This document shows positions 1 to 22,047 of a stretch of 23,411 nt of DNA, in pieces. The DNA is from an uncultured delta proteobacterium (GTDB lineage: Bacteria > Desulfobacterota > Desulfobacteria > Desulfobacterales > JAHEIW01): NCBI GenBank assembly GCA_963706575.1, contig CAVPNL010000023.1:1-23411 (forward strand), read 5' to 3'. Positions within the stretch are counted from its first letter, which is position 1. Every line of letters begins with the position of its first letter. The notes under the pieces were generated by a model, which had not been told where the DNA came from, did no database searches, and saw nothing but the letters and a program-made list of their open reading frames with translations. Both the position numbers and the translations under genes were made by a program.

Positions 1-1
1 G

Positions 2-439
2 AACGATGCGATGGTAACCCGTACAGCGGCAGAGGTTTCCTTTGATATGTTCTCTAATTTGATCTTCCGATGGCGAAGGATATTTATTTAAAAGATCTTT
101 GGCCATCAGAACCATTCCGGGCGTACAATAGCCGCACTGAATGGCGGCCGTGTCTAAAAATGCCTCCTGGATCGGGTCAAGGGTCCCATCCGGCGCAGCC
201 ACGCCTTCAATGGTCAGAATATCCGCACCGTCAACCGCCAGGGCCAGGGTCAGGCAGCTTAGAACCGGCTCCCCGTTGACGAGCACCGTACAGCCGCCGC
301 ATTGGCCGGTGCCGCAGCCGTATTTGGTGCCGGTCAGCTCGACCTCGTTTCTCAACAGATTCATCAGCAGTGTATTGGGCGCCACTAAAAATTCGCAGGG
401 CTCGCCATTGACCCTCAGCTGTATGCGCTGTTTTTGCAT
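2..439 (-). CDS. (2Fe-2S)-binding small subunit of xanthine dehydrogenase/CoxS family, 3' end runs off the window
   Basis: Not in the ORF track; translated by hand from ATG at 439: MQKQRIQLRVNGE...GTKYGCGTGQCGGCTV...SC...QCGYCTPG...GNLCRCTGY, the two canonical [2Fe-2S] motifs. The ATG overlaps the TAA of the upstream FAD subunit (TAATG). Confidence 0.93.
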   Translation of the reverse strand, partial: MQKQRIQLRVNGEPCEFLVAPNTLLMNLLRNEVELTGTKYGCGTGQCGGCTVLVNGEPVLSCLTLALAVDGADILTIEGVAAPDGTLDPIQEAFLDTAAIQCGYCTPGMVLMAKDLLNKYPSPSEDQIREHIKGNLCRCTGYHRIV

Positions 440-1326
440 TATCTCTTCCCTCCGGCCCGCTGCCAGGCCATATCGAAAACATCTTTAAATATTACCGCTG
501 CCACCTGTCTGCGATAGGTCTCGCTGGAGCGCACATCGCTGATAGGCCGAATTTCAGCTGAAACGCTTGCGGCGGCTTCATCCAGTAAGGTAGAATCAAT
601 TTGCTTGCCGCTTAATAATTCTTCCGCCCCCTTCACTCGCATAGGCACCGGGGCAACGGCCCCAAGGGCAATCCGGCAAGAGACACACCGGTCGGCATCA
701 CGCTGCAGGGCCACCGCACAGCTCAATTTTGAAATATCGGCTGCCACGCGAGCGACCTTCAAAAAAGCGCTGCCCTGATGATCCTCGCCCGGCGTAATGT
801 GGATTTCAGTCATGATTTCGTTGGCAGTCATAACCGCCGCATAGGGGCCGGTGATAAAATCCTCAACGTCCAGGGTGCGGCTGCCCTCCGGGCTTGCCAG
901 GGTAACGCGCCCATTTAAAACCAGCAGCGGCGGCACCGAATCGGCGGCCGGAGAAGCGGTGCAAAGGTTTCCGCCGAGGGTGCCCATATTCATGACCTGA
1001 ACTTTGCCGATCGAACGCAGGGCATCATGCAGAGCCGCATACCTTGGGTCCCGGGCGCAGGCCTGCTTTACGTCGCGCAGCCGGGCGCATGCGCCGATGT
1101 TCAGGCCGTCGTTGTCTTCATTGATATCGCTCAACCCTGAAATTTTCATCAGGGTGACCAAATGATTCGGAGCAATCTTTTCGTATTTGAGCTGCGGCAC
1201 CACATCGGTCCCACCGGCGATCACTTTGGCAGCATCGCCGTATTCAGCCAGCAACTCAAATGCCGCTGCCAGGCTGGCCGGCCGGTGGTAATCAAACTCC
1301 TGTGTCAGGATTTTCGTGTTTACCAT
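439..1326 (-). CDS. FAD-binding medium subunit of xanthine dehydrogenase/CoxM family
   Basis: Motifs FDYHRP, IAGGTD, GTLGGNL..ASPAAD, PISDVRSS..YR. Start moved from 1374 to ATG 1326 (MVNTKILTQEFDY), which fits the family length. Overlaps the large subunit 3' end by 35 nt. Confidence 0.9.
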   Translation of the reverse strand: MVNTKILTQEFDYHRPASLAAAFELLAEYGDAAKVIAGGTDVVPQLKYEKIAPNHLVTLMKISGLSDINEDNDGLNIGACARLRDVKQACARDPRYAALHDALRSIGKVQVMNMGTLGGNLCTASPAADSVPPLLVLNGRVTLASPEGSRTLDVEDFITGPYAAVMTANEIMTEIHITPGEDHQGSAFLKVARVAADISKLSCAVALQRDADRCVSCRIALGAVAPVPMRVKGAEELLSGKQIDSTLLDEAAASVSAEIRPISDVRSSETYRRQVAAVIFKDVFDMAWQRAGGKR

Positions 1327-3685
1327 GATCGTCTTCTTCAATTTGGGATTTCTGTTTAAGTGCCGCAAGGACACGTTCAGGCGTTATCGGCGCCGCTTTA
1401 AAGCGAATGCCCACCGCGTTGTAGACCGCATTGGCCACCGCTCCTGCGGTGGCGTTGTTGGCAGCCTCGCCGATTCCCTTGGCGCCGAAGGGGCCTGAGG
1501 GCTCATAGGTGTTGGCAAAAAAGGTGGAGATATCTTCAAGCGACGGCATATCTTGAGAGGTAAACATCTTATAATCGGTAAAAAATCCACCGCAGGTCAG
1601 TTCACCGGTTTGCGGATCGTAATCGGTGTCTTCCAGTAAGGCCAGCCCGACCCCGCGGCAAAGTCCGCCCTCCAGCTGGCCGGCGGCAAGATCGGGGTTG
1701 ATCACCGTACCGGCATCAACAGCGGCAACCGCTCTGGTGGGCCGGATTCGACCGGTCAGCGTATCGACTTCGACTTCAATAAAATTGGTCACAAAACACG
1801 GCGGGCAGTTGACCTGGCGATGGCTGACCACGCCGAGAATCGTGCCCCAGCCTTTAAGTTGAGCCATTTTGGCCACTTCACCAATGGAAATGTTTTTCGC
1901 CAGTGTGCCGGGTAAATAAATGATGCCCTGACCGCTGCCCTCTTCGGGATAAATTCTAAGTGCCTCCGGATTCACTTCAATTAAGCGTGAGGCAAATTCA
2001 AACAACTTTTTTTTGGCTTTTTGGGCGGCTCTCTGCAGGCTGGCGCCGCCGCAATATACGCCCCGGGTCGCATGGGTACACACATCGTAACCGGTCGAAC
2101 GGGTGTCGGAAGGCGAAATACCGACGTTGTCCAGCGGCACGCCCAGTTCTTCGGCAACGATTTTGGCTCCGGCCTCAAGGGTTCCACCGCCATGACACAT
2201 TAAAGCCGTTGAGCAATCAACGGATCCGTCTTCGTTGATTTTAACCATTGCGGTAGAGTAGTCGATGACCTCTCCGGGGGTGGGCGCACCGGTTCCGGAA
2301 GTATGAAAACCGCGACCCACACCGATGCCCCGTCGAAATCTCTGGGTCTTAAGCTGAGGGATTAAGCGTTTTTCCCAGCCGATTATTTCTTTGCCCCGCA
2401 GCAGCATTTCCTCTACACCGCAACTGCGTATGACCGAACGGACCGTTGGCCCCTGCCCCCAGAATGTCTCACCGAGTCCCACGTAATTTTTCAAACGGAT
2501 ATCGATGGGATCGATCCCCAATTTTCCGGCGATGATATCCATCTGGGATTCAACTGCGAAAGAAACCTGCGGGTTGCCATAGCCTTGCATGGCGCAGGCC
2601 GGCGCCTTGTTGGTATAGACCGCGTTGCCCTCGAATTTTAAATGCGGCATGCGGTAGAGGGACACAAACCATCCTGCCATGCAGCCGAGCAGCGGGTATG
2701 CCTGTATATTGTGTCCTCCGATATCAACGACTGTTTTCAAATAGCCCGCCGTCAGAGTACCGTCGCGCTTGACGCCATATTTAAGACGTATAATGGTGGG
2801 ATACTTGCAATGATCATACATATCCTCTTCGCGTGTCAGCACCAGTTTGACCGGTTTCTGGGCCTTGAGGGCCAGCGCCACGCAGATCGCAACGGGTGTG
2901 TTCATCTGAATGCTGGAGCCGAAAGCGCCCCCAATGGGAACCCGGTGCACATTAACCTTGCTCAACGGGATGTTGAAAATGCGGCCCAGCAGCTGGCGGG
3001 TGTTGTGAATGGACTGGGTTGTGGGCCAGACCGTGATGCCGCCGTCCGCTTCCGGCCGGCATACCACCGCCTTGCTCTCCATCTGGCCGTGGTAAACCCG
3101 TCCGGTCTTAAATTCATTTTCCACCACCAGATCGGCCTCGGCAAAACCTTTCGCCACATCGCCTTCACCGACCTCTCTGAAACAGGCAATATTTTGTTGA
3201 ATGGGAAGGACTTTATCACCCAGCATGATGTCTTCATACAACACCGGTGCACTTTCTTTCATCGCTTCATAAGGATCGAAGACGGCGGGCAGTGGTTCAA
3301 ATTTTACGACAATACGCTTAAGTGCCTTATCGACCAGGGCTTCTGTTTTAGCGGCAACGGCAACAACCCCCTCTCCAACATGGCGTACCTTATCAGGTAA
3401 GACAGTGCGATCGCGATAGGTCTTTTCCGGGATACTGACCTGGCGCTCGTTGTATTTGATTTGGGGGATATCCTTATAGCTAATACATACGGCACCCAGT
3501 TTTTCCGCTTCACGCGTATCGATGGAGACAATTTTCGCATGGGGATAGGGGCTCCTGAGGACTCTGGCATGGAGCATATTGGGCAGGCTCACATCGGATA
3601 CGTATCGTTCTCTGCCGGTAACCCTTGCATAACCTTCTTTTCGCGGGGAAATCCGACCAATTGCATGAAAATTATTGTCATCCAT
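1292..3685 (-). CDS. Molybdopterin-binding large subunit, xanthine dehydrogenase/aldehyde oxidoreductase family
   Basis: 797 aa with LRSPYPHA, GGAFG, MQGYGNPQ, EVEVD..TG, DAG.VINP...GQ.EGG and GPFGAKGIGE (catalytic Glu). GGAG RBS upstream. Confidence 0.93.
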   Translation of the reverse strand: MDDNNFHAIGRISPRKEGYARVTGRERYVSDVSLPNMLHARVLRSPYPHAKIVSIDTREAEKLGAVCISYKDIPQIKYNERQVSIPEKTYRDRTVLPDKVRHVGEGVVAVAAKTEALVDKALKRIVVKFEPLPAVFDPYEAMKESAPVLYEDIMLGDKVLPIQQNIACFREVGEGDVAKGFAEADLVVENEFKTGRVYHGQMESKAVVCRPEADGGITVWPTTQSIHNTRQLLGRIFNIPLSKVNVHRVPIGGAFGSSIQMNTPVAICVALALKAQKPVKLVLTREEDMYDHCKYPTIIRLKYGVKRDGTLTAGYLKTVVDIGGHNIQAYPLLGCMAGWFVSLYRMPHLKFEGNAVYTNKAPACAMQGYGNPQVSFAVESQMDIIAGKLGIDPIDIRLKNYVGLGETFWGQGPTVRSVIRSCGVEEMLLRGKEIIGWEKRLIPQLKTQRFRRGIGVGRGFHTSGTGAPTPGEVIDYSTAMVKINEDGSVDCSTALMCHGGGTLEAGAKIVAEELGVPLDNVGISPSDTRSTGYDVCTHATRGVYCGGASLQRAAQKAKKKLFEFASRLIEVNPEALRIYPEEGSGQGIIYLPGTLAKNISIGEVAKMAQLKGWGTILGVVSHRQVNCPPCFVTNFIEVEVDTLTGRIRPTRAVAAVDAGTVINPDLAAGQLEGGLCRGVGLALLEDTDYDPQTGELTCGGFFTDYKMFTSQDMPSLEDISTFFANTYEPSGPFGAKGIGEAANNATAGAVANAVYNAVGIRFKAAPITPERVLAALKQKSQIEEDDHGKHENPDTGV

Positions 3686-3710
3686 AACAAACTTTCTCCA
3701 TTATACTTCT

Positions 3711-4277
3711 CTACCAAACCGGCGGCGTCCATACAAACAGGACTTCTGCGGTTTCTTTCCCGGTGTTGACCCAATGATGAGGAATGTCGCCATTAAAATA
3801 GAGCGTGTCGCCTTCCTGGAGGAGAAGACGTTCCGTACCGATTTCAAATTCGACCTCCCCTTTTAGCACCAGCACAAATTCCTCTGAGCCTTTCGGGTGC
3901 TCCATGGTCCCGGACTTATCCAGCATCCCTCCCGGTTTGATCACGGATAGGAGCGGCTGCATCTTTTTCTGGAATACACCTTTTGTCAGGAGCTGACTGA
4001 CAACTTCCCCATCCGGGTAATGAATGGTTCGACGATCTGTTTTTCGCAGACACCAGTTGCCCTGTTCCCCCCGGTTATTCCCCCGAAACAGATCGACAAC
4101 ATGCACTTCCAATGCATCGGCAAGACGTCCGAGCATCGATACCGATGGCGCACCGGTCCCTTTCTCAAGTTGAGATATATAGGACTTGGTGCATCCGGCA
4201 ATCCGGGCAAGTTGCTCCAGAGTAAACCGTTTTTGTTGTCTCAGCTCCTTGAGTCTTTTGGGGAATTCGTCATCCAT
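3711..4277 (-). CDS. XRE-family HTH transcriptional regulator with C-terminal cupin domain (PuuR-like)
   Basis: N-terminal RLKELRQQKRFTLEQLA...KSYISQLEKG...PS helix-turn-helix; C-terminal H..SEEFVLVLKG...GDTLYF....PH cupin. Confidence 0.92.
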   Translation of the reverse strand: MDDEFPKRLKELRQQKRFTLEQLARIAGCTKSYISQLEKGTGAPSVSMLGRLADALEVHVVDLFRGNNRGEQGNWCLRKTDRRTIHYPDGEVVSQLLTKGVFQKKMQPLLSVIKPGGMLDKSGTMEHPKGSEEFVLVLKGEVEFEIGTERLLLQEGDTLYFNGDIPHHWVNTGKETAEVLFVWTPPVW

Positions 4278-4347
4278 TAAATTTCAGCACCTATTCAGAA
4301 ATCAATGTCAGAAGGAAGGGTAATCAGCCTATAGCAGCTAGCAAAAT

Positions 4348-4373
4348 CCCAATTGGGTTAAAAACCAATTGGG
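4348..4373. promoter_or_regulatory. Twin CCAATTGG palindromes in the regulator 5' region, candidate operator or hairpin
   Basis: cccaattggg-ttaaaaa-ccaattggg: two self-complementary boxes that also pair with each other. Confidence 0.3.
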
Positions 4374-4442
4374 CGTTATCTGTTATTCGTTATTTTTTAA
4401 TCATTAAAAGTGTATTATAAGTAAACTTGTATAATATTAGTT

Positions 4443-4472
4443 AACCTACACGATCGGTTTCAATTCTGTCAA
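4443..4472 (-). promoter_or_regulatory. Putative sigma70 promoter for the regulator/Mo-hydroxylase operon
   Basis: Minus strand TTGACA-N18-TAGGTT in an AT-rich spacer. An imperfect palindrome tattataagtaaacttgtataata (4413-4436) lies just downstream. Confidence 0.45.
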
Positions 4473-4782
4473 TAAAAATTTAAAATCGGATTCATATCTA
4501 ATATCACCACTTAATTATATTTAAAAACAAATAGTTAGTTAAAAGCGGCAACTTATATCATAATACCTGAAATTGTTTTGCGGCTTTAATCAATAACCGG
4601 GTTTATCAAATACCCGGATTTGGGTTAAATATATGTTGACTCCCGAATATTGCATTGTTAGGTATTTTCAGCTATTGCAGAATATGGATTTTTACTCCGT
4701 TCGGTTCCGATGGCTTTCAGGCAAAAAATCCGAACATCGGGTGTCCATTATGCATTAACCTCAAAATAAAAAGGAGATGAAA

Positions 4783-4989
4783 ATGTCAGATTGGTTTCCG
4801 TTGGATTTGAAGATTGCAAAACCGCATCCCGGGCATGAAGCACACCTGTGTATGGCCCACAGTGTCGGGTTTGTTGAACATAATCTTCAGGAATATAAAA
4901 AGTTTGTTCGCAATGCCAAATTTGTCTGCAAAAATTGCGGCCGCGTCGCCGCCAAAGCGGAAAATCTATGCCAACCTGAAACGTTGTGA
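4783..4989 (+). CDS. Small Cys/His-rich hypothetical protein, probable metal binder
   Basis: AAGGAG RBS at 4771-4776, 6 nt before ATG 4783 (ATG 4777 abuts the RBS). Sequence has HPGHEAHLCMAH and CKNCGRVA....LCQP. Confidence 0.75.
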   Translation: MSDWFPLDLKIAKPHPGHEAHLCMAHSVGFVEHNLQEYKKFVRNAKFVCKNCGRVAAKAENLCQPETL

Positions 4990-5021
4990 TTCGTAACCGA
5001 ACACGGCCTTGAAAGGATATT

Positions 5022-6311
5022 ATGCGCGAAAATGCCCTTAGCGATATAAAAGCCTATGAAATCATTGATAACCGTGGAATGCCGACCATACGGGTGGCGG
5101 TTTGTATTGACAACCAATTCTGGGGTCACGCCGATGTGCCCAGTGGATCCTCTACCGGCTCTTATGAGGCCGTGGAATTGAGAGACGGGGATGCCCGCTA
5201 CCGCGGCAAAGGCGTCCTCAAGGCCATTCAGAACATTCATGACATTATCCTGCCCGAACTCCGCGGCAAAGATGCCGGCAATCTACACGCCATCGACACC
5301 CGGATGCTTGAGCTGGATGGGACCGAAAACAAATCAAATCTGGGCGGAAACGCCATCCTGGGTGTCTCTCTCGCCGTTGCCCAGGCAGCGGCAAATGCCT
5401 GTGGTAAACCCCTTTATAAATATCTGAATGCGGATGCCCGTGTGTTACCGGTCCCGCAGGCCTGTCTGTTAAATGGCGGTGTACACGCCGGCAACGACCT
5501 CGACATTCAGGAATTCTGCGTGATGCCGACCGGTGCCCGAACATTTGCAGAGTCCGTTCAGATTCTTTGCGAAACCTTTTATAGCCTCAAAGACATTTTA
5601 CTTGATAAGTTGGGAAAGTCCGCCACCAACAGCGGTGAGGACGGTGGATTTGCCCCGCCGATATCCTCTACCCGCCAGGCAATGGACCTTTTATGTGAAG
5701 CCATCCAACGCTCCGGTTATACGGACAAAGTCGTTTATGGGCTGGATTTCGCGGCAAGCGGATACTACCATTCAGAAACGGACACCTATGCGTTTGAGGG
5801 TTCCCAAAAAACACAGGATGAAATGATTGCGTTCATAAAAGAGCTTCTAGCCGAATACCCATCCATCGTATCCATTGAAGACCCCCTGCATGAAAATGAT
5901 TTAAAAGGCATGCAGATATTAACCGATGCATTCAGCAAACACCTCATCATTGGCGATGACATGTTCGCCACCAACATAAAGCGCATTCAAAAAGGCCTGG
6001 AGCAAGGGGCGGGTAACGCCACGCTTTGCAAGGTCAATCAGATTGGAACCTTGACGGAAGCTTCGGAGACCGTCGATTTTGCGCGCCGGAACAATTTTGC
6101 GGTGGTCATGTCCGAGCGATCCGGCGAGACCGAGGACAGTGTGCTGTCCGATATCAGTGTTGCCTTTAATGCGGGGCTGTTTAAAACCGGCGGTATCCGC
6201 GGCTCCGACAGGGGAGCGAACTACAACCGCTTCATAGAGATCGAACGCGAGCTGGGTCCTTCCGCTGATTATGCCGGGACCCGATATGGCGAGGTAACGA
6301 TTTCCGGGTGA
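5022..6311 (+). CDS. Enolase (phosphopyruvate hydratase) family protein, divergent paralogue
   Basis: VPSGSSTG, EAVELRDGD.RY.GKGV, NGGVHA, QEF, SIEDP, GDD, KVNQIGTLTE, RSGETED, KTG. GAAAGGA RBS. Catalytic motifs are altered (see findings), so the eno symbol is withheld. Confidence 0.93.
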   Translation: MRENALSDIKAYEIIDNRGMPTIRVAVCIDNQFWGHADVPSGSSTGSYEAVELRDGDARYRGKGVLKAIQNIHDIILPELRGKDAGNLHAIDTRMLELDGTENKSNLGGNAILGVSLAVAQAAANACGKPLYKYLNADARVLPVPQACLLNGGVHAGNDLDIQEFCVMPTGARTFAESVQILCETFYSLKDILLDKLGKSATNSGEDGGFAPPISSTRQAMDLLCEAIQRSGYTDKVVYGLDFAASGYYHSETDTYAFEGSQKTQDEMIAFIKELLAEYPSIVSIEDPLHENDLKGMQILTDAFSKHLIIGDDMFATNIKRIQKGLEQGAGNATLCKVNQIGTLTEASETVDFARRNNFAVVMSERSGETEDSVLSDISVAFNAGLFKTGGIRGSDRGANYNRFIEIERELGPSADYAGTRYGEVTISG

Positions 6312-6346
6312 AATTTGTATGGACTGATTTCAAAGGAGACATACAG

Positions 6347-7717
6347 TTGATCAAAAATCGTGCTGAATTACTTTCCCATGGATTTGTCGAAGGCCGGCAG
6401 AAGGTATTAGACATTGCCGAACATACCCTAAAGCATGTCGATCCGCTGGCTGCGGTAAAAAACCATGTAAAATTAGACGGCAGCAGACTTCAGGTCGGCG
6501 AAGATGATTTTGATCTGAATAAGGTCAATAAGATTTATGCAATTGGGGGCGGCAAGGCAACCTATCCCCTGGCAATTGGATTAGAAGAAATTTTGGGCGA
6601 TCGCATCAGCGACGGGTTTATTGCCGTCAAAAAAGGGCAGAAGCAGCCCTTTTGCGAAACCATGGGGACCCTATCAAGAATACAGGTGGCCGAATCCGCG
6701 CACCCCATACCGGATGAAACCAGCCTGGAAGCCGGTAAGGCCGTATGGCAGATTGCTGAAAAGGCCGGTCGGAACGATATGGTTTTTTGTTTGATGTCCG
6801 GCGGCGTTTCGGCCCAGTGCATCTATCCGGTTGAGGGCATCTCCTTAAATGACAAGGTCAGCATTAATCAATTGCTGGTACACAGCGGCGCAGATGTCAC
6901 TGAAATCATGACGGTCAGGGGACACCTTTCGCGCATCAAAGGTGGCCGACTGGCGCCGCAGATGCTCCCGGCGACCGTCGTCAGCCTGACGGTTTCGGAT
7001 GAAAAGACCGACTCCATGAAATGGAATACCGATTGGGCCAGCCCGGATTCCACCACCCTGGCGGATGCTGAAAGGGTTCTTAAAAAATATGGTTTGTGGC
7101 AAAAGGTATCCGAGCAGGTACGTGATTATCTTTCCCATCCGACGCCGGATAAAGAGACGCCCAAATCATTTTCAAATCAACCTTTATATTACTGTATGGT
7201 GGTAAAGACACGCGCGCTCTGGGAAGGGGCCGCGCAAAGGGCGAAAGCGCTCGGTTTAACCCCGCTGTTACTGACAACCCTGCTAAACGGCGAAAGCCGG
7301 GAAGTCGGACGCACGATCGCTTCGATTGCAAACGAAATTAAATTGTCCGGCAATCCGGCCCGCCCACCGTGTGCGCTGATCGCCACCGGTGAAACCGCCG
7401 TGCGAATCCGGGGGGCTGTTCGTGGCCAGGGTGGTGCAAACCAGGAACTGGCAGCTGGCGCCTGTCTGGATTTAAACGAAACAAGTCCTATCGCGATCTG
7501 CGCATTGGATACGGACGGCACCGATGGCCCGACGTCACTGGCCGGTGCGCTTACGGATGGGTCAACGCCAAAAGCGGCGGCCCAAAAGGGATACGATTTG
7601 TTTCAAAATCTCATGGAACACGATGTCGCAACCGTGCTGAAGGCCACCGGAGATGCGGTCATCACCGGCCCGACCGGCACAAACGTAAACGATCTGGTGA
7701 TTTGCGTAATTTTATAG
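6347..7717 (+). CDS. Glycerate 2-kinase-like protein (DUF4147 + MOFRL domains)
   Basis: GGGKA, HPIPD, SGG.SA, HLS.IKGG.L, GESRE, NQE, DTDGTDGPT, TGTNVND. TTG start at 6347 preferred (AAAGGAG at 6332-6338, MIKNRAELL); GTG 6308 is the alternative. Confidence 0.88.
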   Translation: MIKNRAELLSHGFVEGRQKVLDIAEHTLKHVDPLAAVKNHVKLDGSRLQVGEDDFDLNKVNKIYAIGGGKATYPLAIGLEEILGDRISDGFIAVKKGQKQPFCETMGTLSRIQVAESAHPIPDETSLEAGKAVWQIAEKAGRNDMVFCLMSGGVSAQCIYPVEGISLNDKVSINQLLVHSGADVTEIMTVRGHLSRIKGGRLAPQMLPATVVSLTVSDEKTDSMKWNTDWASPDSTTLADAERVLKKYGLWQKVSEQVRDYLSHPTPDKETPKSFSNQPLYYCMVVKTRALWEGAAQRAKALGLTPLLLTTLLNGESREVGRTIASIANEIKLSGNPARPPCALIATGETAVRIRGAVRGQGGANQELAAGACLDLNETSPIAICALDTDGTDGPTSLAGALTDGSTPKAAAQKGYDLFQNLMEHDVATVLKATGDAVITGPTGTNVNDLVICVIL

Positions 7718-7744
7718 GTGTATATATTGAAAGGCAAAACATCG

Positions 7745-9010
7745 ATGATGGATTTTCCGCACATGATGCGTATCAGACAAAGGTTTGATGATAGCGCTCT
7801 AGACGATATCCCCGGGGAAATTGCCAGGCAACTGGCGAACTTAAAGCTGGAATCTTCTGTTAAAAAAGGGCAGACGGTTGCGGTAGCCTGCAGCAGTCGC
7901 GGGCTAGCCAATTATGCTGTTATCGTCAAGGCCGTCGTCTCTTTTCTCAAACAATTAAAATTGGAACCCTTTCTCATTCCGGCAATGGGAAGCCATGGCG
8001 CTGCGACGGCCGCCGGACAAAAGCGTGTACTCGAACATTTGGGAATTGATGAAAAAGAAATCGCTGCGCCGATTCGATCCTCCCTTGAAATCGTGCAGAT
8101 TGGTGAGACCGAGGACCACATCCCGGTCTATCTTGACCGGCTGGCATCTGAAGCAGATTATATCGTTCTGATTAACCGCATTAAGAAGCACACCGAGTTC
8201 GAACACGAATTTGAAAGCGGCTTGCTCAAAATGATGGCCATCGGCCTGGGCAAGCAAGAAGGCGCCGCCACCTATCACGAGGCCATGCTGACCTATGGTT
8301 ACCCCGGCGTCATCCTGGCCGTCGCCCGTAAAGTGATGCAGCATGCGAATCTGTTATTCGGCGTGGGAACTGTGGAAAACGGGTATGGGCAAACCGCCCG
8401 TATCGGTGTCGGGCTGAAAGAAAACATTGAAGAAATGGAAAAAGAATTGCTCACATCCGCCAAAGCCTACGCACCGTCCCTGCCTTTTGACGAAGCCGAC
8501 ATTATCCTGATCGATGAAATGGGAAAAGAAATCAGTGGTACCGGCTTTGACACGAAGGTGGTTGGACGGATTGGCCTGCCGCTGGTGACGCCAGAACCGG
8601 AACGCCCCAGAATAAAACGCATTGTCGTAAGTGATTTAACGGAAAGCTCGGAGGGAAATGCCGTGGGGGTCGGTATCGCCGATATCATTACCCGGCGCCT
8701 GTTCGACAAAATTGACATGGATGCACTCAACATGAACACCATCACCGGTGTTTGCCCGGAAATGGGCAAAATCCCGCTGACCGTCAAAAATGATTATGAG
8801 GCCATTGAAATTGCCATAAAATGTGTCGGTTTGATCCCCAGGGAAAAATTGAAGATCATGCGTATCAAGAACACAGCGCTGTTAAGTGAAGTTGAAATCT
8901 CACAGGCTTACGAAGAGGAAGTCGTAAAGCGCGATGATCTTGAGGTGGTTACCCCCAAAAAAGAGATGGATTTTGATCCTGCCGGTTATCTGAAACCCTT
9001 TCTCGGATGA
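7745..9010 (+). CDS. LarA-like (lactate racemase N-terminal domain / DUF2088-type) putative 2-hydroxy-acid racemase/epimerase
   Basis: SRGLAN, PAMGSHG.AT..GQ, NRIK.HT.F, ESGL.KM..IGLGK..GA, GK.ISG.G.D, GNA.G.G.AD. Start at ATG 7745 or 7748 after a GAAAGG RBS. Confidence 0.75.
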   Translation: MMDFPHMMRIRQRFDDSALDDIPGEIARQLANLKLESSVKKGQTVAVACSSRGLANYAVIVKAVVSFLKQLKLEPFLIPAMGSHGAATAAGQKRVLEHLGIDEKEIAAPIRSSLEIVQIGETEDHIPVYLDRLASEADYIVLINRIKKHTEFEHEFESGLLKMMAIGLGKQEGAATYHEAMLTYGYPGVILAVARKVMQHANLLFGVGTVENGYGQTARIGVGLKENIEEMEKELLTSAKAYAPSLPFDEADIILIDEMGKEISGTGFDTKVVGRIGLPLVTPEPERPRIKRIVVSDLTESSEGNAVGVGIADIITRRLFDKIDMDALNMNTITGVCPEMGKIPLTVKNDYEAIEIAIKCVGLIPREKLKIMRIKNTALLSEVEISQAYEEEVVKRDDLEVVTPKKEMDFDPAGYLKPFLG

Positions 9011-9034
9011 AGTCAACATCATTCCATCGCATAG

Positions 9035-9188
9035 CTGTGTCACAATTCAAAAACACATCTGATTTCTAACCGTCCTGCCGGACTTGATCCGGCATCCAGA
9101 ACTGTAAAACTTTGAAAAATCAATGGATTCCGGGTCAAGCCCGGAATGACAAAAGGCTCATTTATGTCGCTTGCGAAATCCGACACAG
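9035..9188. repeat. REP/MITE-like element: two inverted hairpin units inside short terminal inverted repeats
   Basis: ctgtgtc (9035-9041) ... gacacag (9182-9188) enclose gtcctgccggacttgatccggcatccag (9072-9099) and tggattccgggtcaagcccggaatgac (9124-9150), which are imperfect reverse complements of each other. Confidence 0.75.
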
Positions 9189-9222
9189 TCTGATCACGCC
9201 TAGATCAGACGCAATACCGGGA

Positions 9223-10360
9223 TTAATAGGCCCGATCGAGGCGCAGAATGTCGATCTTCTGGGTTACCGCGCCCCGACCGAACGTGGCATAATAGACGGC
9301 GATCTCGCGCCCCGTGGGACTCCAGGCGTAATCCGAAGTAAGAACGCGCTCGCGGTTTGCTGAGTTGTTTGTTGAAATCGGTAAGTCGGAAAATATTCCC
9401 CGTCCGCGTCTCGCGGGCCCACAACTCCAATCGCAGCGTTTTTGCCGTATCCGGCGGGTTTTTCCAATCGAAGCTGCGGCTTGAATTGAACGCTACAAAA
9501 GAACCCTTTGGCGAGGGCTCTCCGTGTTCCTCCCAGGTGGCGGGTGATTTTGTAATGTTGACACGCTGGGTTCCATCCCAACGAGCCCGGTAGATATCAT
9601 CGACTAGAGGGCGCCCGCTTTTGGTGTGGGAAAACCAAATCACATCTGACTTGAGCGCATGAGATTCGAAAAAGCCGCCTTCCCCGCGGTAGAGATCAAT
9701 ACGATTTGTAAGTTTTGCTTTTCCCGAAACGTCGCGTTTGAAGTTCGCAATAGCGAGATGCCAACCGTCCCACGGGTTTTCCTTGCCGGGCGTTTTATGA
9801 AAAAGCCGCTGACGGATCTTTCTACCGGTTGATTTGCGCACGGTCCAAAAGAGGCGGTCCCCGCTATCTGAAAAATGTGGATGCAGGCACGCACCTAAAT
9901 ATTCGGTTTCGATAAGCCGTTGCGCCCATTTCCCGTTTGCAGCGATGAGCCATAAATCGTTGTGGATCCCCCAGGAAACAAACTCAAACCGGCTACCTTT
10001 ATAATATTTCCCTTGTACCTGGATTACCAAAAATTCGCCACTCGGGTGCCAGGCAGGCTGCCCTCGAATTCCTTTCGGCAGGCCCGGTATATTGCAGGTG
10101 ATGCATCGCTCTCCGCTTCCGTCCGGCCGAATTGCAAAGACCTCGCTGCTGTCGGCGCCCGTCATGCGATCAAATGCAATTAGATTGTTTGCAGCACACC
10201 AATCGACGCGGCCGCCGTGCACTGTCAACGCCCGGCGAGAAACCACAATGTTTCCGAGCTCGTCTTCAGCAGCGCTGTTTGTCACAGACCCTTGATTTGA
10301 TAGACACCCGATGACAATGGCGGCAATTAAGCCGAACGCAAAAGGTAACCGCTTCACCAT
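9223..10360 (-). pseudogene. Secreted/lipoprotein TolB-like (PD40/WD40-like) beta-propeller protein, frameshifted near the 3' end
   Basis: Signal peptide with VIGC lipobox-like motif; repeats VDWCA, PAWHPSG, PHFSDSG, EPSPKG. The last repeat (RVLTSDYAWSPTGREIAVYY...IDILRLDRAY*) is in another frame beyond ~9357, with its stop at 9223. May be a sequence error. Confidence 0.7.
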
Positions 10361-10411
10361 TCCGCTCCTCCAAATTCACCGTCCCATGATGTAACCAAAA
10401 GATTCCAACGG

Positions 10412-10840
10412 TTATTTAATAAAATAACCAGAGACTCGCCACTCGCCATCATTATCCAACATCGGGGTGATGGTTTCAATTGCAGGTTTCTTATTTTCGA
10501 ATGATGTCGCAAATTGGATAACCACATACTCTCCATCCGGTGCGCCGGGCAAAGATTGCATGTCGGTTTTTGAACCGAGTTCTCTGGAAACCAGCCCGCC
10601 CAACGGATTCCTCACGGCAGTCAGCATTTGCACCCATTTTTCTTTGGTTATGGCACTTTTGAAATACGCCGCAGCGGTTTCCCAACTATCACCATATTTT
10701 CCTTCATCAACAAGTGCTAACCATGTTCTTGCTGCCTCCAGAGCTTGCTCTTCTTTTTCCGCACTTGCTATTGAACTGGATGAAAAACAAAGCCCCAAAA
10801 TAGCGATTCCAATTATCGTATATATCTTTGCATGCTTCAT
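10412..10840 (-). CDS. DUF4019-domain secreted protein
   Basis: Signal peptide; AARTWLALVD.G.Y..SW, R.PLG, LPGAPDGEYVVIQF.TSF.NK, G.WRVSGYFIK. AAGGAG RBS. Confidence 0.85.
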   Translation of the reverse strand: MKHAKIYTIIGIAILGLCFSSSSIASAEKEEQALEAARTWLALVDEGKYGDSWETAAAYFKSAITKEKWVQMLTAVRNPLGGLVSRELGSKTDMQSLPGAPDGEYVVIQFATSFENKKPAIETITPMLDNDGEWRVSGYFIK

Positions 10841-10866
10841 TGAATCTCCTTTGTTTTACTTTTTGC

Positions 10867-10962
10867 ACATAACGCCAATCTTAACAGCAGAAAGGCAAAA
10901 AAGACTTCTCGCTTGGCATGGCCGTCCCCGGCCCGGCTTTCTGCTATAATGAAAGGTTCGAC
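10867..10962 (-). mobile_element. attC-like imperfect palindrome (possible degenerate integron cassette recombination site)
   Basis: Minus strand GTCGAAC-CTTTC-ATTATAGCAGAAAG ... CTTTCTGCTGTTAAGATTGGC-GTTATGT, 96 bp, between two co-oriented short genes. Confidence 0.4.
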
Positions 10963-11603
10963 TTTCCGTCAAATGCGGTGACCAACTCACCAGGAGTTTT
11001 GAAAAAAGCGTGTGCGCCTGAATTCTCTAACTCATCTTTGGTTCCGTACCCCCAAAGAACGCCAAAACCATATATGCCATTCTCAATCGCACCGATAATA
11101 TCATGCTCGCGATCCCCGATCATCGATGTCTCAGACGGTGCAATCAATTCTCTTTGCAGAATATGGGATATCAGGCTTGTCTTGTCGCTGCGGGTTCCAT
11201 CGAGGTCGCTTCCAAAGATACGTTTGAAATAGTGGTGTAAACCAAAATGGTCGATAATCCGCTCGGCAAAAACGGCTGGTTTCGATGTGGCAACATAGAG
11301 CGTATGGCCATTTTCCTGCAGGACTTCCAGCACTTCAGGAATACCGCCATAGACCTCGTTTTCAAATAATCCAACGGTGCCGAATCTTTCACGATAAAAC
11401 GCGACGGCCTTTTCGATAAGTGCATCGTCACCAGGGGTAAGCAGCTTCGCGAAGCTGTCTTTCAAGGGCGGGCCTATACACCAGCCCAAACTCTCCCTGG
11501 GCGGTAATCTCCTGCCTAACATATCTAACGCATACGAAATGCATTTTGTAATACCTGTAAAAGGGTCAGTCAGTGTGCCATCTAAATCAAATAATAGATT
11601 CAT
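10944..11603 (-). CDS. HAD-superfamily hydrolase (phosphoglycolate phosphatase / 5'-nucleotidase-like)
   Basis: LLFDLDGTLTD, IGPPL, VATSK, K, MIGDREHD, GVLWGYG. Confidence 0.92.
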   Translation of the reverse strand: MNLLFDLDGTLTDPFTGITKCISYALDMLGRRLPPRESLGWCIGPPLKDSFAKLLTPGDDALIEKAVAFYRERFGTVGLFENEVYGGIPEVLEVLQENGHTLYVATSKPAVFAERIIDHFGLHHYFKRIFGSDLDGTRSDKTSLISHILQRELIAPSETSMIGDREHDIIGAIENGIYGFGVLWGYGTKDELENSGAHAFFKTPGELVTAFDGKSNLSL

Positions 11604-11691
11604 TGTCTTTCAGCGGAGTATTCAACAGGGTGAATGTTCTCCGGGAAAAATAATTTTGGGGTGTGGTAACTTCATCTTGCCTGAATTGAGC

Positions 11692-11791
11692 GATTGTCGA
11701 GGTTGCCGCAGATGCAAGGAAAATGTCGTTCCGCTATAGTTCTCTATGCGGGACGGCATTTGACACAGCAGGTGCGGTAAGATCGGCAATC
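11692..11791 (+). other. Long imperfect hairpin (structured RNA or repeat element)
   Basis: Nested stems gattgtcga/tcggcaatc, ttgccgca/tgcggtaa and aaatgtcgttccgc/gcgggacggcattt; all non-Watson-Crick pairs in these stems are G-U on the + strand. Confidence 0.6.
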
Positions 11792-11798
11792 CCGAAGG

Positions 11799-11872
11799 GT
11801 TTTAAATTTTAAAAATGAAAACCGATAGAATTCCTTAAGAATGAAGAATTTTCCCTTTTTAAAATTTAAAAC
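11799..11872. repeat. Perfect 17-bp AT-rich inverted repeat
   Basis: gttttaaattttaaaaa (11799-11815) and tttttaaaatttaaaac (11856-11872). Confidence 0.65.
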
Positions 11873-11886
11873 GCTCAATTTAGGAC

Positions 11887-13467
11887 TTATTTGACTTCAA
11901 CCGACTCGCCATATTTGGGCACCACCACAGAAAAGCCTTCCTCTTTCAAAAACTCGGCAAATGAAAGGATCTGATCTTCTTCGCCGTGGACGAGAGCGAT
12001 TTTTTTTATTTTTAAATTGGACTTCTTAAGAAAACGCAGCATCTCATTTTTGTCGGCATGGGCGCTGAATCCACCCAGTCTGACAACATGCGCTTTCAAG
12101 GGGTACTCTTTGTTTAAGATCCTCACCAGCGGCGCGGCACCTTTACGACCGGATTCTTCATATTTTAGACCCAGGTCAAGAATTCGCCGGCCCAGGGTAT
12201 TCTGGGCCTGGAAGCCGACCATCAGAACCGTATTTTTATCATTGTGAATTTTGTAACGCAGGTGATGCAGGATGCGCCCGGCTTCACACATGCCGGATGC
12301 CGAAAGCACAATGTGCGGTTTGGTTTCGTGGTTGAGTGCGATGGATTCTTCTACCGAACCCACAAAATGGATCTTGTCCATTGAAAACGGATTTTTACCT
12401 TTCTTCAGAAAGGCATTGTGGGTTTCCTCATCATAAACTTCCGGATGTTCCCCAAAAACCTGGGTAATTTTGGTCGCCAGCGGGCTGTCCACATAAATCG
12501 GCACGCGCGGCACCGAGCGGTCATCGTATAGTTCATGCAGCGTGTACAGTAACTCCTGGGTGCGGCCATATGCGAAGGCCGGAATGATAACGGTACCACC
12601 GCGTTCATGGGTTTCAGTGAGCACCTTTTGCAACTGCGGTTTCAAGTCTTGAACCGGCTCATGCAACCGATCTCCATAGGTGCTTTCCATAATCAGCAGA
12701 TCAATCTGCTGGTCTTCTTCACTAAAATCCAGGGTCGGATCCTCGATAATCGGTTTATCAAAGCGACCGATGTCACCGGTATAGCATACCTGTAAATCAC
12801 GGCCATTTTGCCGGGCGCGGATCAGCGCAAAGGCCGATCCGAGAATGTGGCCGGCATCATAAAAGGTACAGGTCAGATCCTTGCCGATGGAAATGGGATG
12901 CCGGTAGGGATATCCGTCAAACAACTCCAGGGCCTTATCCGCATCAGCGATCCGGTACAGCGGATCGACTCTTTCAAGATGATGGGTTTCGATCAGCTCA
13001 TCGATCATATCCGTGTTCAGGTCGTGACGGTTTTTCTTTAAAATTTTTTTTATTTCCTTGCTTTTGCGATTGCTGATTCTCGTGCCGCCCTTGGAGCTGT
13101 GCCGCTTGCTCAAAGCATTGCGGACGGTCTTATAATTCAAATAGTTTGCATCGGATTCCTGAATATGAGCGGAATCGCGTAAAAGGTATTCACTGGCCGC
13201 AGCAGTGGCACGTGTGCAGATAATCCGGCCGCTAAATTCGTGCTTGACCAGCAAGGGTATTCGGCCGGAGTGATCGATATGCGCATGGGAAAGCACAATA
13301 TTTGTAAGCATTCTCGGGTCAAAGGGGATGACTTTGTTTTTTTCGGCAGCTTCTTTACGGCGGCCCTGAAACAATCCAGCGTCCAAGATGACCCGGTCTT
13401 CATCTGTTGCCAAAAGGTGCATGGATCCCGTTACTTCCCTTACCGCGCCATAAAAGGTTACGTACAT
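11887..13467 (-). CDS. Metallo-beta-lactamase / beta-CASP ribonuclease (YSH1/TTHA0252-like)
   Basis: GAVREVTGS, SHAHIDHSG, AGHILGS, GDIG, MESTYG, SASGM..GRI.HH, FSAHAD, VHGE. Start at ATG 13467 after GAGGAG. Confidence 0.92.
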   Translation of the reverse strand: MYVTFYGAVREVTGSMHLLATDEDRVILDAGLFQGRRKEAAEKNKVIPFDPRMLTNIVLSHAHIDHSGRIPLLVKHEFSGRIICTRATAAASEYLLRDSAHIQESDANYLNYKTVRNALSKRHSSKGGTRISNRKSKEIKKILKKNRHDLNTDMIDELIETHHLERVDPLYRIADADKALELFDGYPYRHPISIGKDLTCTFYDAGHILGSAFALIRARQNGRDLQVCYTGDIGRFDKPIIEDPTLDFSEEDQQIDLLIMESTYGDRLHEPVQDLKPQLQKVLTETHERGGTVIIPAFAYGRTQELLYTLHELYDDRSVPRVPIYVDSPLATKITQVFGEHPEVYDEETHNAFLKKGKNPFSMDKIHFVGSVEESIALNHETKPHIVLSASGMCEAGRILHHLRYKIHNDKNTVLMVGFQAQNTLGRRILDLGLKYEESGRKGAAPLVRILNKEYPLKAHVVRLGGFSAHADKNEMLRFLKKSNLKIKKIALVHGEEDQILSFAEFLKEEGFSVVVPKYGESVEVK

Positions 13468-13489
13468 GTTCAACTCCTCTTCTTTCGTA

Positions 13490-13585
13490 GGTTCTGGGTT
13501 CAGAGGTTCAAAGGTTCAGGGTTGCTGGTTGCTCGCTGCCTCAAGATTTTTGCCATTCCGCAATCCGCAATCCGAATTCCGCATT
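13490..13585. repeat. Two short tandem arrays (GGTTCAG-like 7-8-mers; CAATCCG-like heptamers)
   Basis: ggttctg ggttcaga ggttcaaa ggttcag ggttgct ggttgct (13490-13533); cattccg caatccg caatccg aattccg (13554-13581). Confidence 0.75.
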
Positions 13586-13971
13586 TAAATAATTTCGTGC
13601 CCTTCGGCGGTTAAGGCATCGATCGCTTTTGCAAGATCTTTTTCTTTAACCATGAAATAGTCTGTATCAAACGTCGATATGACAAATACCGAAACGCCGT
13701 TTTTGGCCAGCGGTTGGGTTAAGGAGAAAATAATGCCAATTTCAGAAAAGTCTAATAGCCCCTGAACCTTAAAACATCGCCAGCCGGTTTCGCTGGTTGT
13801 TCCCGGGGCAAGGCGGGCCTCCGGGCAAACAAGGGTCAATTCCGCTTCGGTGCGGGTGAGCGAATAGAAGCCGACCTCACCAATCCAGTCCGGAAGCGGT
13901 GCCGTGGGTTCGAAGCGGCAAACGGCCATCCGTTCGGGGAGTATTTTCAGTGAACGCTTTTTGAGCTTCAT
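13585..13971 (-). CDS. Small ACT-domain protein (ACT_7-like)
   Basis: SLTRTEAELTLVC, GWRCFKV.G.LDF...GI, PLA..GVSVFVISTFDTDY..VK. Confidence 0.88.
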   Translation of the reverse strand: MKLKKRSLKILPERMAVCRFEPTAPLPDWIGEVGFYSLTRTEAELTLVCPEARLAPGTTSETGWRCFKVQGLLDFSEIGIIFSLTQPLAKNGVSVFVISTFDTDYFMVKEKDLAKAIDALTAEGHEII

Positions 13972-14020
13972 ATTATATTTCAGTGAATTTGTTAAAGACG
14001 GCGTTCAGTGGGATTGCGAA

Positions 14021-14067
14021 TCTATATATGTTGTATTTGATTAAAAAAAACATACAATATATAGTAA
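14021..14067. promoter_or_regulatory. Tandem NrdR-box-like sites
   Basis: Cores ATATATGTTG (14024-14033) and CAATATATAG (14055-14064) versus consensus CwAyATrTwG; starts are 31 bp apart. Confidence 0.55.
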
Positions 14068-14085
14068 CAAATATCAAAGGCGAAA

Positions 14086-15666: not shown

Positions 15667-15757
15667 ATTTATCCTAAGGGGTTTTGGGGCAGCAACAAAA
15701 GAGATGGGACGCACTCGAGTTTATTGAAATATGCTTTTTTTGAAGGAGGTAAATAAA

Positions 15758-16859: not shown

Positions 16860-16879
16860 TTTCACTTCGTTCAATGATC

Positions 16880-16902
16880 GTGCGGCCTGTCAGCCGCACT
16901 TT
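16880..16902 (+). terminator. GC hairpin after prfB, possible weak intrinsic terminator
   Basis: gtgcggc-ctgtca-gccgcac followed by only ttt. Confidence 0.35.
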
Positions 16903-16977
16903 AAGAGCGGTCTTTCAGACCTCGAGGAGCGTTGCTTCGGAACTTGAAGCGCTAAAACTAAACTCATCCGAACCAAT

Positions 16978-17040
16978 ATGGCGGCAAAATGCCGCTCCCA
17001 TTCTCAAAATATTATGTGGGAGTGGCTTGCAGCCACGAAT
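16978..17040. repeat. Inverted pair of GTRG-type REP-like palindromes
   Basis: Minus strand ATGGGAGCGGCATTTTGCCGCCAT (16978-17001) and plus strand GTGGGAGTGGCTTGCAGCCACGAAT (17016-17040); the stems covary (GCGGC/GCCGC vs GTGGC/GCCAC). Confidence 0.65.
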
Positions 17041-17100
17041 CAAAAACGCGATCTGCTAAGCGGATAACTTTTTTTCCAAAAAAGCAGCAACGGCCAGCCC

Positions 17101-22042: not shown

Positions 22043-22047
22043 TTTTC

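Follow-up and report, generated by a model that had tools for sequence, protein, structure and literature searches.

The window, a 23,411-nt stretch of DNA from a sediment bacterium, represents the entire contig C23; the region analysed here is positions 1-9,010. The genes of this region are all real, and domain and profile searches bore out the gene set and the arrangement in two divergent arms that had been described before (Table 1). The left operon is cut by the contig end. For the FAD subunit, an ATG at 1326 is the likely start, and the ORF list opens at position 1374. The control region between the arms is indeed AT-rich, with a GC content of 0.39-0.42 at positions 4001-5000 versus 0.48-0.58 in the flanking genes. 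A palindrome starting at position 4348 is a dispersed repeat which is missing in relatives. The small ORF between the arms yielded no match in Pfam or NCBIfam; it has a paralogue on contig C15 and falls in unnamed clusters. As originally stated, neither a transporter nor larBCE genes were detected in the window, and the same applied to methyltransferases.

Table 1 Features of positions 1-9,010 of the window
Feature	Position	Strand	Remarks
[2Fe-2S] subunit of Mo enzyme 1	2..439	-	Domains Fer2 and Fer2_2; 3' end lost at contig end
FAD subunit of Mo enzyme 1	439..1326	-	Domains FAD_binding_5 and CO_deh_flav_C
Mo subunit (Mo1), xanthine-oxidase family	1292..3685	-	Profile searches, motifs and partner genes in relatives
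XRE-cupin regulator	3711..4277	-	Domain search; companion of Mo1, not of eno*
Predicted XRE operator GTAAAC-N13-GTTAAC	4419..4447	.	Just downstream of a leftward TTGACA
Hypothetical protein, 70 aa, Cys/His-rich	4777..4989	+	Between both arms; at most a candidate member of the pathway
Enolase paralogue eno*, clade A	5022..6311	+	Predicted 2-phospho-3-amino-lactate lyase
MOFRL kinase	6308..7717	+	Predicted 2-kinase of a 3-substituted lactate
LarA homologue, group 22	7718..9010	+	Start codon probably the ATG at 7745; predicted to racemise C2 of the kinase substrate

The right arm starts with an enolase paralogue, eno*. In a FastTree phylogeny, 78 eno* sequences grouped separately from 73 canonical enolases (support 0.996), and the window copy belongs to clade A within this group (support 1.0). 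The group has members in Desulfobacterota, Chloroflexota, Bacillota, Actinomycetes and Archaeoglobi. The fold is that of enolase (TM 0.95 and 50% identity to the closest structure, M. jannaschii 2pa6), and the TIGR01060 score of 503 bits exceeds the cut-off of 300. The alignment indicated that the general base K337 and the Mg ligands D242, E286 and D312 are retained together with Glu164, His155, Arg366, Ser367 and Lys388. In contrast, the leaving-group side is changed. Glu211 is replaced by Asp and His373 by Glu (yeast numbering), and the motifs carrying the general acid Glu (GDEGG) and the His (SHRSG), two positions 100% conserved in the 73 canonical copies, read GEDGG and SERSG. Further replacements at nearly invariant positions are Asn to Cys148, Arg to Gly394 and Lys to Asn400, so that E206-D207, E365, C148, G394 and N400 form the signature of the window copy. 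His373 was replaced in every eno* sequence aligned, with the base and the Mg ligands kept. Val instead of Glu occupies this position in 16 of the 36 clade-A copies of near-full or partial length (18 loci in another count), which a fixed ion pair leaves unexplained. A separate canonical eno is present in this genome and in 5/5 other genomes tested; eno* is a second copy, distinct from the housekeeping enolase and tied to a kinase. The databases label eno* proteins plainly as 'enolase', suggesting that the entire clade may be misannotated.

A MOFRL kinase was located within 1.2 kb downstream of eno* in 70 of 80 related loci, but no MOFRL match was found near canonical enolase in 69 loci. The predicted conserved pairing of kinase and enolase paralogue, often accompanied by a LarA enzyme, thus held, the compared eno* loci being those of related MAGs and not independent draws. 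The two protein trees are congruent (patristic r 0.89; of 44 supported splits, 29 are common to both), a congruence which can also arise from shared descent. The kinase shares the domains DUF4147 and MOFRL with glycerate 2-kinases of the TM1585 type (NF041176). The presumed active site of T. maritima TM1585 consists of K47, D189, E312, R325, D351 and N407 (PMC1079889). Five of these six residues are kept in the window kinase, but Arg325 is replaced by Ala377, Asp401 is gained, and the motifs SGGGS and IASGP are changed to SGGVS and NTDW. Nearly all eno*-linked kinases have lost the Arg and gained the Asp. The other MOFRL protein of the genome adjoins a pyruvate kinase and has kept the Arg, as a canonical glycerate kinase. 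Scores against the glycerate-kinase equivalogs (202/550 and 150/670) were below both cut-offs, a weak test as these models are archaeal. Altered active-site motifs, previously noticed in three enzymes, were confirmed for the enolase, the kinase and the Mo subunit, and these changes speak against plain glycerate as the substrate.

The third protein of the right arm is a group 22 member of the LarA homologues (NF052515, 488 bits with a cut-off of 400). In an alignment against canonical-type homologues, R61, H93, H158, K171 and H187 map to R75, H108, H174, K184 and H200 of LarA at low similarity (26% over 131 residues), as putative counterparts of the Arg, both catalytic His, the Lys and the Ni-binding His of the nickel-pincer racemases. 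The position of LarA Asp72 is missing due to a two-residue deletion. The genes larB, larC and larE are encoded elsewhere in the genome, on contigs C2, C3 and C6, all with scores above cut-off; two further LarA homologues could also make use of them. Group 22 has been listed without assigned function, with SDR, dihydroxy-acid dehydratase, TRAP and sugar kinase genes as neighbours, but not enolase or MOFRL (PMC7583248). The window locus differs from this listing in its enolase and MOFRL neighbours. Two distinct LarA lineages are represented near eno* (18 of 36 loci in clade A, 7 of 42 in clade B), a finding in favour of a 2-hydroxy acid as substrate. An ordinary glycerate route, with conversion of L- to D-glycerate by the LarA homologue, phosphorylation to 2-phosphoglycerate and PEP formation by a redundant enolase, would agree with the TIGR01060 score and fold of eno* and with glycerate racemisation by some LarA homologues (PMC11770544), none of those being of group 22. 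Such a route is nevertheless improbable, as the genome already possesses a canonical enolase and kinase, residues invariant in canonical enolases are altered throughout the eno* clade, the kinase has lost Arg325, and the amine-related neighbours described below would be unexplained.

Amine methyltransferases (methylamine/betaine) occurred in 15 of the 36 clade-A loci, compared with a rate of 3% in windows drawn at random from this genome, and in four close loci MttB or MtbB contains an in-frame TAG at the pyrrolysine position. Among single clade-A loci, L040 encodes a GDSL lipase and MttB along with a BCCT betaine transporter, L020 encodes proteins resembling anaerobic glycerol-3-phosphate dehydrogenase, and L036 an aldehyde:ferredoxin oxidoreductase; URO-D-type methyltransferases were present in 9/37 clade-A loci. 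Clade B has a pyrimidine context. PreA was found in 7 of 42 clade-B loci (versus 0.45%) and in 0/36 clade-A loci, and this context therefore bears on the window copy only by homology. One locus (L086) unites eno*, the kinase and pyruvate kinase with an NCS1 permease, a demethylase trio, PreA, dihydropyrimidinase, a carbamoyltransferase and carbamate kinase, the gene set expected for a conversion of 5-hydroxyuracil via N-carbamoyl-isoserine and isoserine to PEP. The clade-B carbamoyltransferase scores below the YgeW cut-off. UxaA-type dehydratases in 13/42 clade-B loci, some also with a lactonase-like protein and IlvD, suggest other substrates within the eno* family; UxaA was found in 0/36 clade-A loci.

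In our preferred reading of the right arm, to which we give about an even chance, the substrate is isoserine (3-amino-2-hydroxypropanoate) or an N-methylated derivative, and its racemisation and 2-phosphorylation are followed by deamination to PEP. The nickel-pincer LarA homologue would invert C2 and thereby make both enantiomers usable, and the MOFRL kinase would phosphorylate the 2-hydroxyl group. In eno*, as in enolase, Lys337 and two Mg ions would serve to take the proton from C2, but the group expelled would be NH3 or mono-, di- or trimethylamine in place of water, with Glu365, the replacement of His, holding the cationic group. For clade A, including the window copy, the amine would most likely be a methylated one, handed on to pyrrolysine methyltransferases. 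In a bolder and less probable reading, eno* is a C-N lyase that arose straight from glycolytic enolase. Together with its kinase, it would complete the reductive degradation of 5-hydroxy- or 5-methoxyuracil via isoserine in clade B, and in clade A it would free trimethylamine or dimethylamine from a so far unrecognised betaine of isoserine. The candidate substrates of the original prediction already included isoserine and N-substituted lactates. A literature search retrieved no description of the right-arm module. We know of no abundant natural source of N-methylated isoserine, and a literature search for one was negative.

The leaving group could also be an ether-bound alcohol. In this case, oxidation of a deacylated betaine lipid (glyceryl-trimethylhomoserine from DGTS, or its DGTA equivalent) would yield a 3-O-substituted glycerate. 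Once this is phosphorylated, eno* would split it into PEP and a free betaine, the latter being demethylated by MttB. Betaine lipids are abundant in algae, the exchanges Glu211 to Asp and His373 to Val or Glu would widen the leaving-group pocket, and the genes of L040, L020 and L036 would fit this route. We consider it unlikely, since the lipase and glycerol genes each occur in single loci, a large substituent fits poorly with the active site of enolase, which closes over its substrate, and the pyrimidine clusters of clade B would be unexplained.

The left arm encodes a three-subunit enzyme with Mo, FAD and two [2Fe-2S] domains and the catalytic Glu motif GAKGIGE of the xanthine-oxidase family, of which about ten other members are encoded in the genome. 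The altered motifs of Mo1 are kept in 74-88% orthologues. Mo1 was above no NCBIfam cut-off, and scores against the glyceraldehyde-dehydrogenase models NF041018/19/20 stayed below the cut-offs (392/790, far short of it; 214/350; and, for a truncated subunit, 189/290). The proposed role of Mo1 as an aldehyde oxidoreductase that supplies the right arm was not supported. In relatives the left operon extends past the position of the contig end and includes a second Mo enzyme (Mo2), cyclic amidohydrolases, AroM and aspartate carbamoyltransferase; further partners are dihydropyrimidinase-like and other amidohydrolases, carbamate kinase, an Asp-type racemase and PyrE. Mo2 was present in only 4 of 400 genomes, the four order-level genomes with a Mo1 of at least 74%. 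Mo2 and the amidohydrolase and carbamoyltransferase partners suggest N-heterocycle catabolism, and Mo1 likely heads a separate operon of this function. With less confidence than for the right arm, the two Mo enzymes may hydroxylate an N-heterocycle to a hydantoin-type ring, which would be opened to N-carbamoyl-aspartate and converted to aspartate. Imidazole-4-acetate is a possible substrate and our best guess.

These nine kilobases most probably comprise two modules and not the single island that had been predicted. The XRE gene lies upstream of Mo1 also in genomes G005, G014, G026, G132, G161 and G399. Its predicted operator, the best site of the genome (24.8 bits versus 15.1 for the next), is at the left promoter only, with the TTGACA at 4467-4472, and no further XRE site above the shuffle null was found at 4480-5021; the notion of one regulator shared by both arms was not sustained. 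The genes also failed to co-occur across genomes, as Mo1 adjoins eno* in only 1 of 80 loci, that one in the same genus. Both observations make a single aldehyde-to-PEP pathway unlikely. Such a pathway would begin with the oxidation of a 3-substituted lactaldehyde by Mo1, or draw its substrate from the left operon in some other way, and would continue with racemisation, phosphorylation and elimination by the right arm. It could explain the identical divergent layout in G005 (intergenic identity 89%), the absence in this genus of the GntR that the left operon carries in close relatives, and the presence of eno* in 4/5 order-level Mo1 genomes versus 17/395 others (Fisher p 3e-5; loci from related MAGs). 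The latter two points weigh against two modules. We still hold one pathway to be a minor possibility: neither eno* nor the kinase nor the group 22 LarA was found in any of 10 Mo1 neighbourhoods outside the genus, 6/10 of them with long flanks, and the usual partners of Mo1 are Mo2 and amidohydrolases. The eno* copies in Mo1 genomes are of mixed subtypes, and at phylum level only 1/5 has eno*. The joint reading, with the right arm converting an isoserine-type compound to PEP and a free amine and the left Mo enzyme in a separate N-heterocycle operon, has in our estimate slightly less than an even chance.

Least probable is a sulfur leaving group, in which case 3-methylthio-, 3-dimethylsulfonio- or 3-sulfolactate would release methanethiol, dimethylsulfide or sulfite (phosphosulfolactate synthase in reverse). 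The URO-D-type methyltransferases and clade-B Dehalococcoidia loci (SDR, lactonase-like, IlvD, UxaA-family) that resemble sulfo-Entner-Doudoroff clusters would support it, and a sulfonium group would suit the altered charges just as an amine does, but UxaA was found in 0/36 clade-A loci, the adjoining pyrrolysine methyltransferases are amine-specific families, and the more acidic sites of eno* and kinase (Glu365, Asp401, loss of Arg) disfavour a sulfonate.

If the isoserine-type reading is correct, amine elimination would be added to the true enolases and a new specificity to the MOFRL kinases, and LarA group 22, an orphan nickel-pincer group, would gain its first substrate. The module would provide a widespread anaerobic exit for 3-amino-lactates, explain the disposal of 5-oxygenated pyrimidines by anaerobes and constitute a new source of methylamine in sediments, pointing to an unrecognised betaine behind the turnover of methylamines. 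The left arm is a candidate for a second uncharacterised anaerobic N-heterocycle pathway and merits a separate study.

The chemistry proposed for eno* has a precedent in 3-methylaspartate ammonia-lyase, an enolase superfamily member which eliminates ammonia from the β-position after proton loss alpha to a Mg-bound carboxylate. Eno* differs in belonging to another subgroup, as a derivative of true enolases with a proposed phosphorylated C3 substrate and PEP as product. With the non-phosphorylative Entner-Doudoroff branch of Sulfolobales, the window shares the families of glyceraldehyde oxidoreductase, glycerate kinase and enolase, but Mo1 is not a glyceraldehyde dehydrogenase by score and context, the kinase and enolase sites are altered, and the window contains no dehydratase or aldolase. 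The reductive urate pathway of E. coli involves XdhD, YgfK, carbamoyl removal and YgeX and ends in 2,3-diaminopropionate, which a PLP lyase converts to pyruvate (PMC12507026). The proposed route would follow a similar logic, in which the ring is reduced or hydroxylated and then opened, the carbamoyl group is removed, and an amine is finally lost from a C3 acid by β-elimination; in the clade-B loci, the kinase and eno* would replace the final PLP-lyase step.

The window is the entire contig C23 of a 5.67 Mb genome (G000), and Desulfobacterales MAGs were the closest named relatives among the matches listed in a search that took a single genome for each species. Gene content and layout agreed with the original prediction, with both gene arms and the AT-rich spacer between them present as claimed. 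The right arm consists of eno* (an enolase paralogue), a MOFRL kinase and a LarA homologue, the left arm of an XRE-cupin regulator and the operon of a xanthine-oxidase-family enzyme, here called Mo1.

Features of the two gene arms in the window
Feature	Position (nt)	Strand
[2Fe-2S] subunit, cut by contig end	2-439	-
FAD subunit	439-1326	-
Mo subunit, xanthine-oxidase-family enzyme (Mo1)	1292-3685	-
XRE-cupin regulator	3711-4277	-
70-aa ORF, Cys/His-rich	4777-4989	+
Enolase paralogue eno*	5022-6311	+
MOFRL kinase	6308-7717	+
LarA homologue, group 22	7718-9010	+

A paralogue of the 70-aa ORF (C15:143787-143990) adjoins the reductive pyrimidine cluster of the window's genome, and in genome G026 the ORF is likewise found upstream of XRE (L106, about 13600-13800). 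A dispersed inverted repeat (9062-9154; 15 further genome matches, very high contig depth) separates the LarA homologue from the convergent gene. The gene set of 9200-23099 looks ordinary (DUF4019, HAD hydrolase, beta-CASP nuclease, ACT protein, lnt, an RF-1/PCRF release factor ORF, an NfnAB-like pair, TatD, AAA ATPase), and a Pfam search gave no match in 9200-10360 nor in 20852-22042.

The original prediction had proposed looking elsewhere in the genome for a separate canonical enolase and for larB, larC and larE. The enolase was found on contig C4 with 47% identity to eno*, larB, larC and larE are all encoded, and a canonical enolase was present too in 5/5 other eno* carriers tested. Placed in a tree together with 73 canonical enolases, the 78 paralogues grouped as a single clade (support 0.996), which splits into two branches. 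Clade A (36 sequences, including the window copy) has ED at the GDEGG motif and Glu, Val or Pro in place of His373, while clade B (42 sequences) keeps DE and has Glu at this position. The signature GEDGG/SEDGG was common to 119 of the 120 best eno* homologues. The search with a single genome for each species gave 379 matching stretches; the 80 listed were inspected as eno* loci, and His373 was absent in all of them. The AlphaFold model of eno* has the enolase fold (pLDDT 89.8; TM 0.95 to 2pa6). In yeast enolase numbering, Lys345 takes the C2 proton, and Glu211 and His373 handle the C3 hydroxyl. In the window's eno* no change was seen at the base Lys337, at the Mg ligands or at the residues that bind phosphate; the changed residues were Glu211, His373, one Asn, one Arg and one Lys, each 99-100% conserved in canonical copies. 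On this combination the first half-reaction seems preserved and the leaving group altered, and the predicted active site is not that of a canonical enolase. A third subtype, SPRSG, was seen in L045, L046 and L049, where the kinase is absent and two of the loci are divergent from a nucleoside phosphorylase. Four other loci (L247, L248, L250 and L251; genomes G734 and G621) hold divergent enolase-like genes of 36-42% identity with SSRSG or no standard motif.

A MOFRL kinase lay within 1.2 kb downstream of eno* in 70 of the 80 listed loci. Among the ten loci without it, fewer than 900 bases of contig were left in four, and three were of the Pro subtype. Near canonical enolases no MOFRL match was found in any of 69 control loci, 60 of which offered at least 300 bases downstream. 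These controls were taken from the matches listed in a metagenome scan (80 loci, mostly canonical enolases), among which no close eno* relatives occurred; 7/80 loci with an untyped or ambiguous motif were left out. Kinase and eno* trees agreed (63 pairs, r 0.89, 29/44 splits shared), an agreement to which shared descent could also give rise. The accessible text of PMC1079889 names six presumed active-site residues for the T. maritima kinase, and the window kinase retains five of them, with Arg325 replaced by Ala377; by its residues it would not be classed as a glycerate 2-kinase. Nearly all kinases linked to eno* have Ala, Pro or Ser at the Arg325 position, with Arg retained in two Val-type loci, and most have gained an Asp two residues before Asp351. 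The other MOFRL protein of the genome adjoins pyruvate kinase and keeps the canonical motifs. The kinase is thus a constant partner of eno* and has changed in the same direction: with the loss of Arg325, the gained Asp and the changes in eno*, both enzymes lose basic and gain acidic groups, as would be expected for a cationic substituent.

The LarA homologue scored above the group-22 cut-off. In the LarA alignment, in which similarity is low and Asp72 is lost, counterparts of both catalytic His residues, of the Lys and of the Ni-binding His can be placed. A structure search found no solved relative. In the available part of PMC7583248, group 22 is listed with function unknown and neighbours of sugar-acid type; the accessible portions of PMC12611868 and PMC11770544 do not treat it. 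Group-22 LarA occurred in 16 of the 80 listed eno* loci, and LarA of either lineage (group 22 or canonical-type) in 18/36 clade-A and 7/42 clade-B loci. Such repeated recruitment of 2-hydroxy-acid racemases argues for a 2-hydroxy acid as substrate of the eno* pathway. The LarA homologue would racemise C2, the kinase would phosphorylate a 3-substituted lactate at position 2, and eno* would eliminate the substituent to yield PEP. The substrate is most likely other than glycerate.

An amine is the slightly favoured leaving group. Counted over loci from related MAGs, so that independence is overstated, methyltransferases of the MttB/MtbB/MtmB families adjoined 15/36 clade-A loci compared with 3% of stretches of equal size drawn at random from this genome, and PreA 7/42 clade-B loci compared with 0.45%. 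In four close loci (L013, L015, L016 and L018; 65-81% identity), MttB or MtbB genes have an in-frame TAG where pyrrolysine is expected, as in the enzymes specific for tri- and dimethylamine. The L040 operon includes a BCCT transporter, and the window's genome encodes such amine methyltransferases on other contigs. In clade A the leaving amine is probably methylated. Full-length MtmB-family genes lacking an in-frame TAG were observed in L032, L053, L078, L080 and L238, adjoining corrinoid proteins and eno* or the Mo operon. We know of no natural source of N-methylated isoserine, which is the weakest point of the amine reading; the main chemical rival is a betaine attached by an ether link and originating from the betaine lipids of algae. 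Another candidate, 2-(hydroxymethyl)-beta-alanine, which 5-hydroxymethyluracil or the head group of DGTA could supply, was set aside because the LarA and pyruvate kinase/PEPCK neighbours point to a 2-hydroxy acid and PEP. Sulfolactate was disfavoured on charge and gene context.

For clade B, the amine reading would have a uracil with a C5 oxygen reduced and opened to N-carbamoyl-isoserine and then isoserine, from which kinase and eno* would form PEP and ammonia. Locus L086 combines a nucleobase permease, a corrinoid demethylase trio, PreA, dihydropyrimidinase, carbamoyltransferase, carbamate kinase, eno*, the kinase and pyruvate kinase. Its carbamoyltransferase was below all family cut-offs; assignment as YgeW was ruled out on this score. 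The stretch (3145-20737, Syntrophomonadaceae MAG) represents a complete candidate pathway for a methylated 5-oxy-pyrimidine. A Dehalococcoidia context (13/42 clade-B loci) differs in its several UxaA-type dehydratases and in the loss of His159, which makes it probable that different family members act on different substrates. Around clade-B eno* without His159 (L052-L072, L085) up to five UxaA-family dehydratase genes were seen, together with a phosphotriesterase-like protein, IlvD, SDRs and TRAP transporters.

The kinase-enolase pairing of the original prediction was borne out, and its single five-enzyme pathway is unlikely. Mo1, proposed there as the aldehyde step, scored under every NCBIfam cut-off, glyceraldehyde dehydrogenase included, and adjoined eno* in only one of the 80 listed loci, in G005 of the same genus; in genome G014 both lie at contig ends. 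The G005 operon continues past the point of the window's contig end with a second Mo enzyme (Mo2), AroM, a dihydropyrimidinase-like protein and another amidohydrolase. Among 400 genomes of the order, with two candidates scored per genome, the four with a 74-80% Mo1 were exactly the four with Mo2. Further Mo1 partners were an Asp-type racemase, aspartate carbamoyltransferase, carbamate kinase, PyrE, a class-III aminotransferase and transporters. A Desulforhopalus homologue of the Mo enzymes was also found. Right-arm genes occurred in 0/10 Mo1 neighbourhoods outside the genus, six of which had long flanks. This uncharacterised two-Mo-enzyme operon (L122 7018-12151 on G005 C59, L105-L108, L237, L239, L241) ends in AroM, amidohydrolase and racemase, or in aspartate carbamoyltransferase, carbamate kinase and PyrE. 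The gene set of the left operon suggests that an N-heterocycle is hydroxylated and then opened to N-carbamoyl-aspartate. Our best guess for the substrate would be imidazole-4-acetate, via hydantoin-5-acetate, which needs no reductase; alternatively, the substrate could be a pyrimidine carboxylate, with orotate as intermediate.

An operator matrix trained on XRE-upstream DNA of five other genomes ranked 4419-4447 first in the genome (24.8 bits vs 15.1), a rank that is partly circular because the consensus used to choose the training sites was first seen in the window. The right-arm side gave nothing above the shuffle null, an absence less affected by this. A promoter scan gave no site on the plus strand and did no better than on shuffled sequence, and contigs from RNA-labelled public runs had low depth, with genes and spacers covered alike. 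The short palindromic repeat at 4348-4401 (five further genome matches) probably represents a small insert of mobile or REP-like type, since contigs from two public runs lack 4279-4387; its palindrome (4348-4373) was ruled out as operator or terminator, being a dispersed repeat missing in relatives. The idea of a single island with a single regulator was rejected from the gene neighbours of Mo1 and eno* together with the operator scan. A link of the arms in one pathway is improbable, even though a GntR gene separates kinase and LarA in close relatives from other genera and is absent in the window's genus, so that the right arm is here without its own regulator, and eno* occurred in 21/400 order genomes but in 4/5 with Mo1 (p 3e-5). 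The eno* copies of Mo1 genomes belong to various subtypes and lie on other contigs, only 1/5 phylum-level Mo1 genomes has eno*, and a shared amine-scavenging lifestyle explains the co-occurrence. The left operon is most likely independent of the right arm.

A literature search, conducted largely without subscription papers, found nothing on a kinase and eno* module or on kinase-based isoserine catabolism; the accessible text of PMC8154272 mentions isoserine solely as a non-substrate of a PLP lyase. The right arm is a kinase-lyase module that is widespread and apparently undescribed. It would work as enolase does, on a substituted substrate. Amine loss has a precedent in the enolase superfamily, 3-methylaspartate ammonia-lyase. 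The isoserine route proposed for clade B would parallel the end of the reductive urate pathway, as far as the accessible part of its description goes (PMC12507026).
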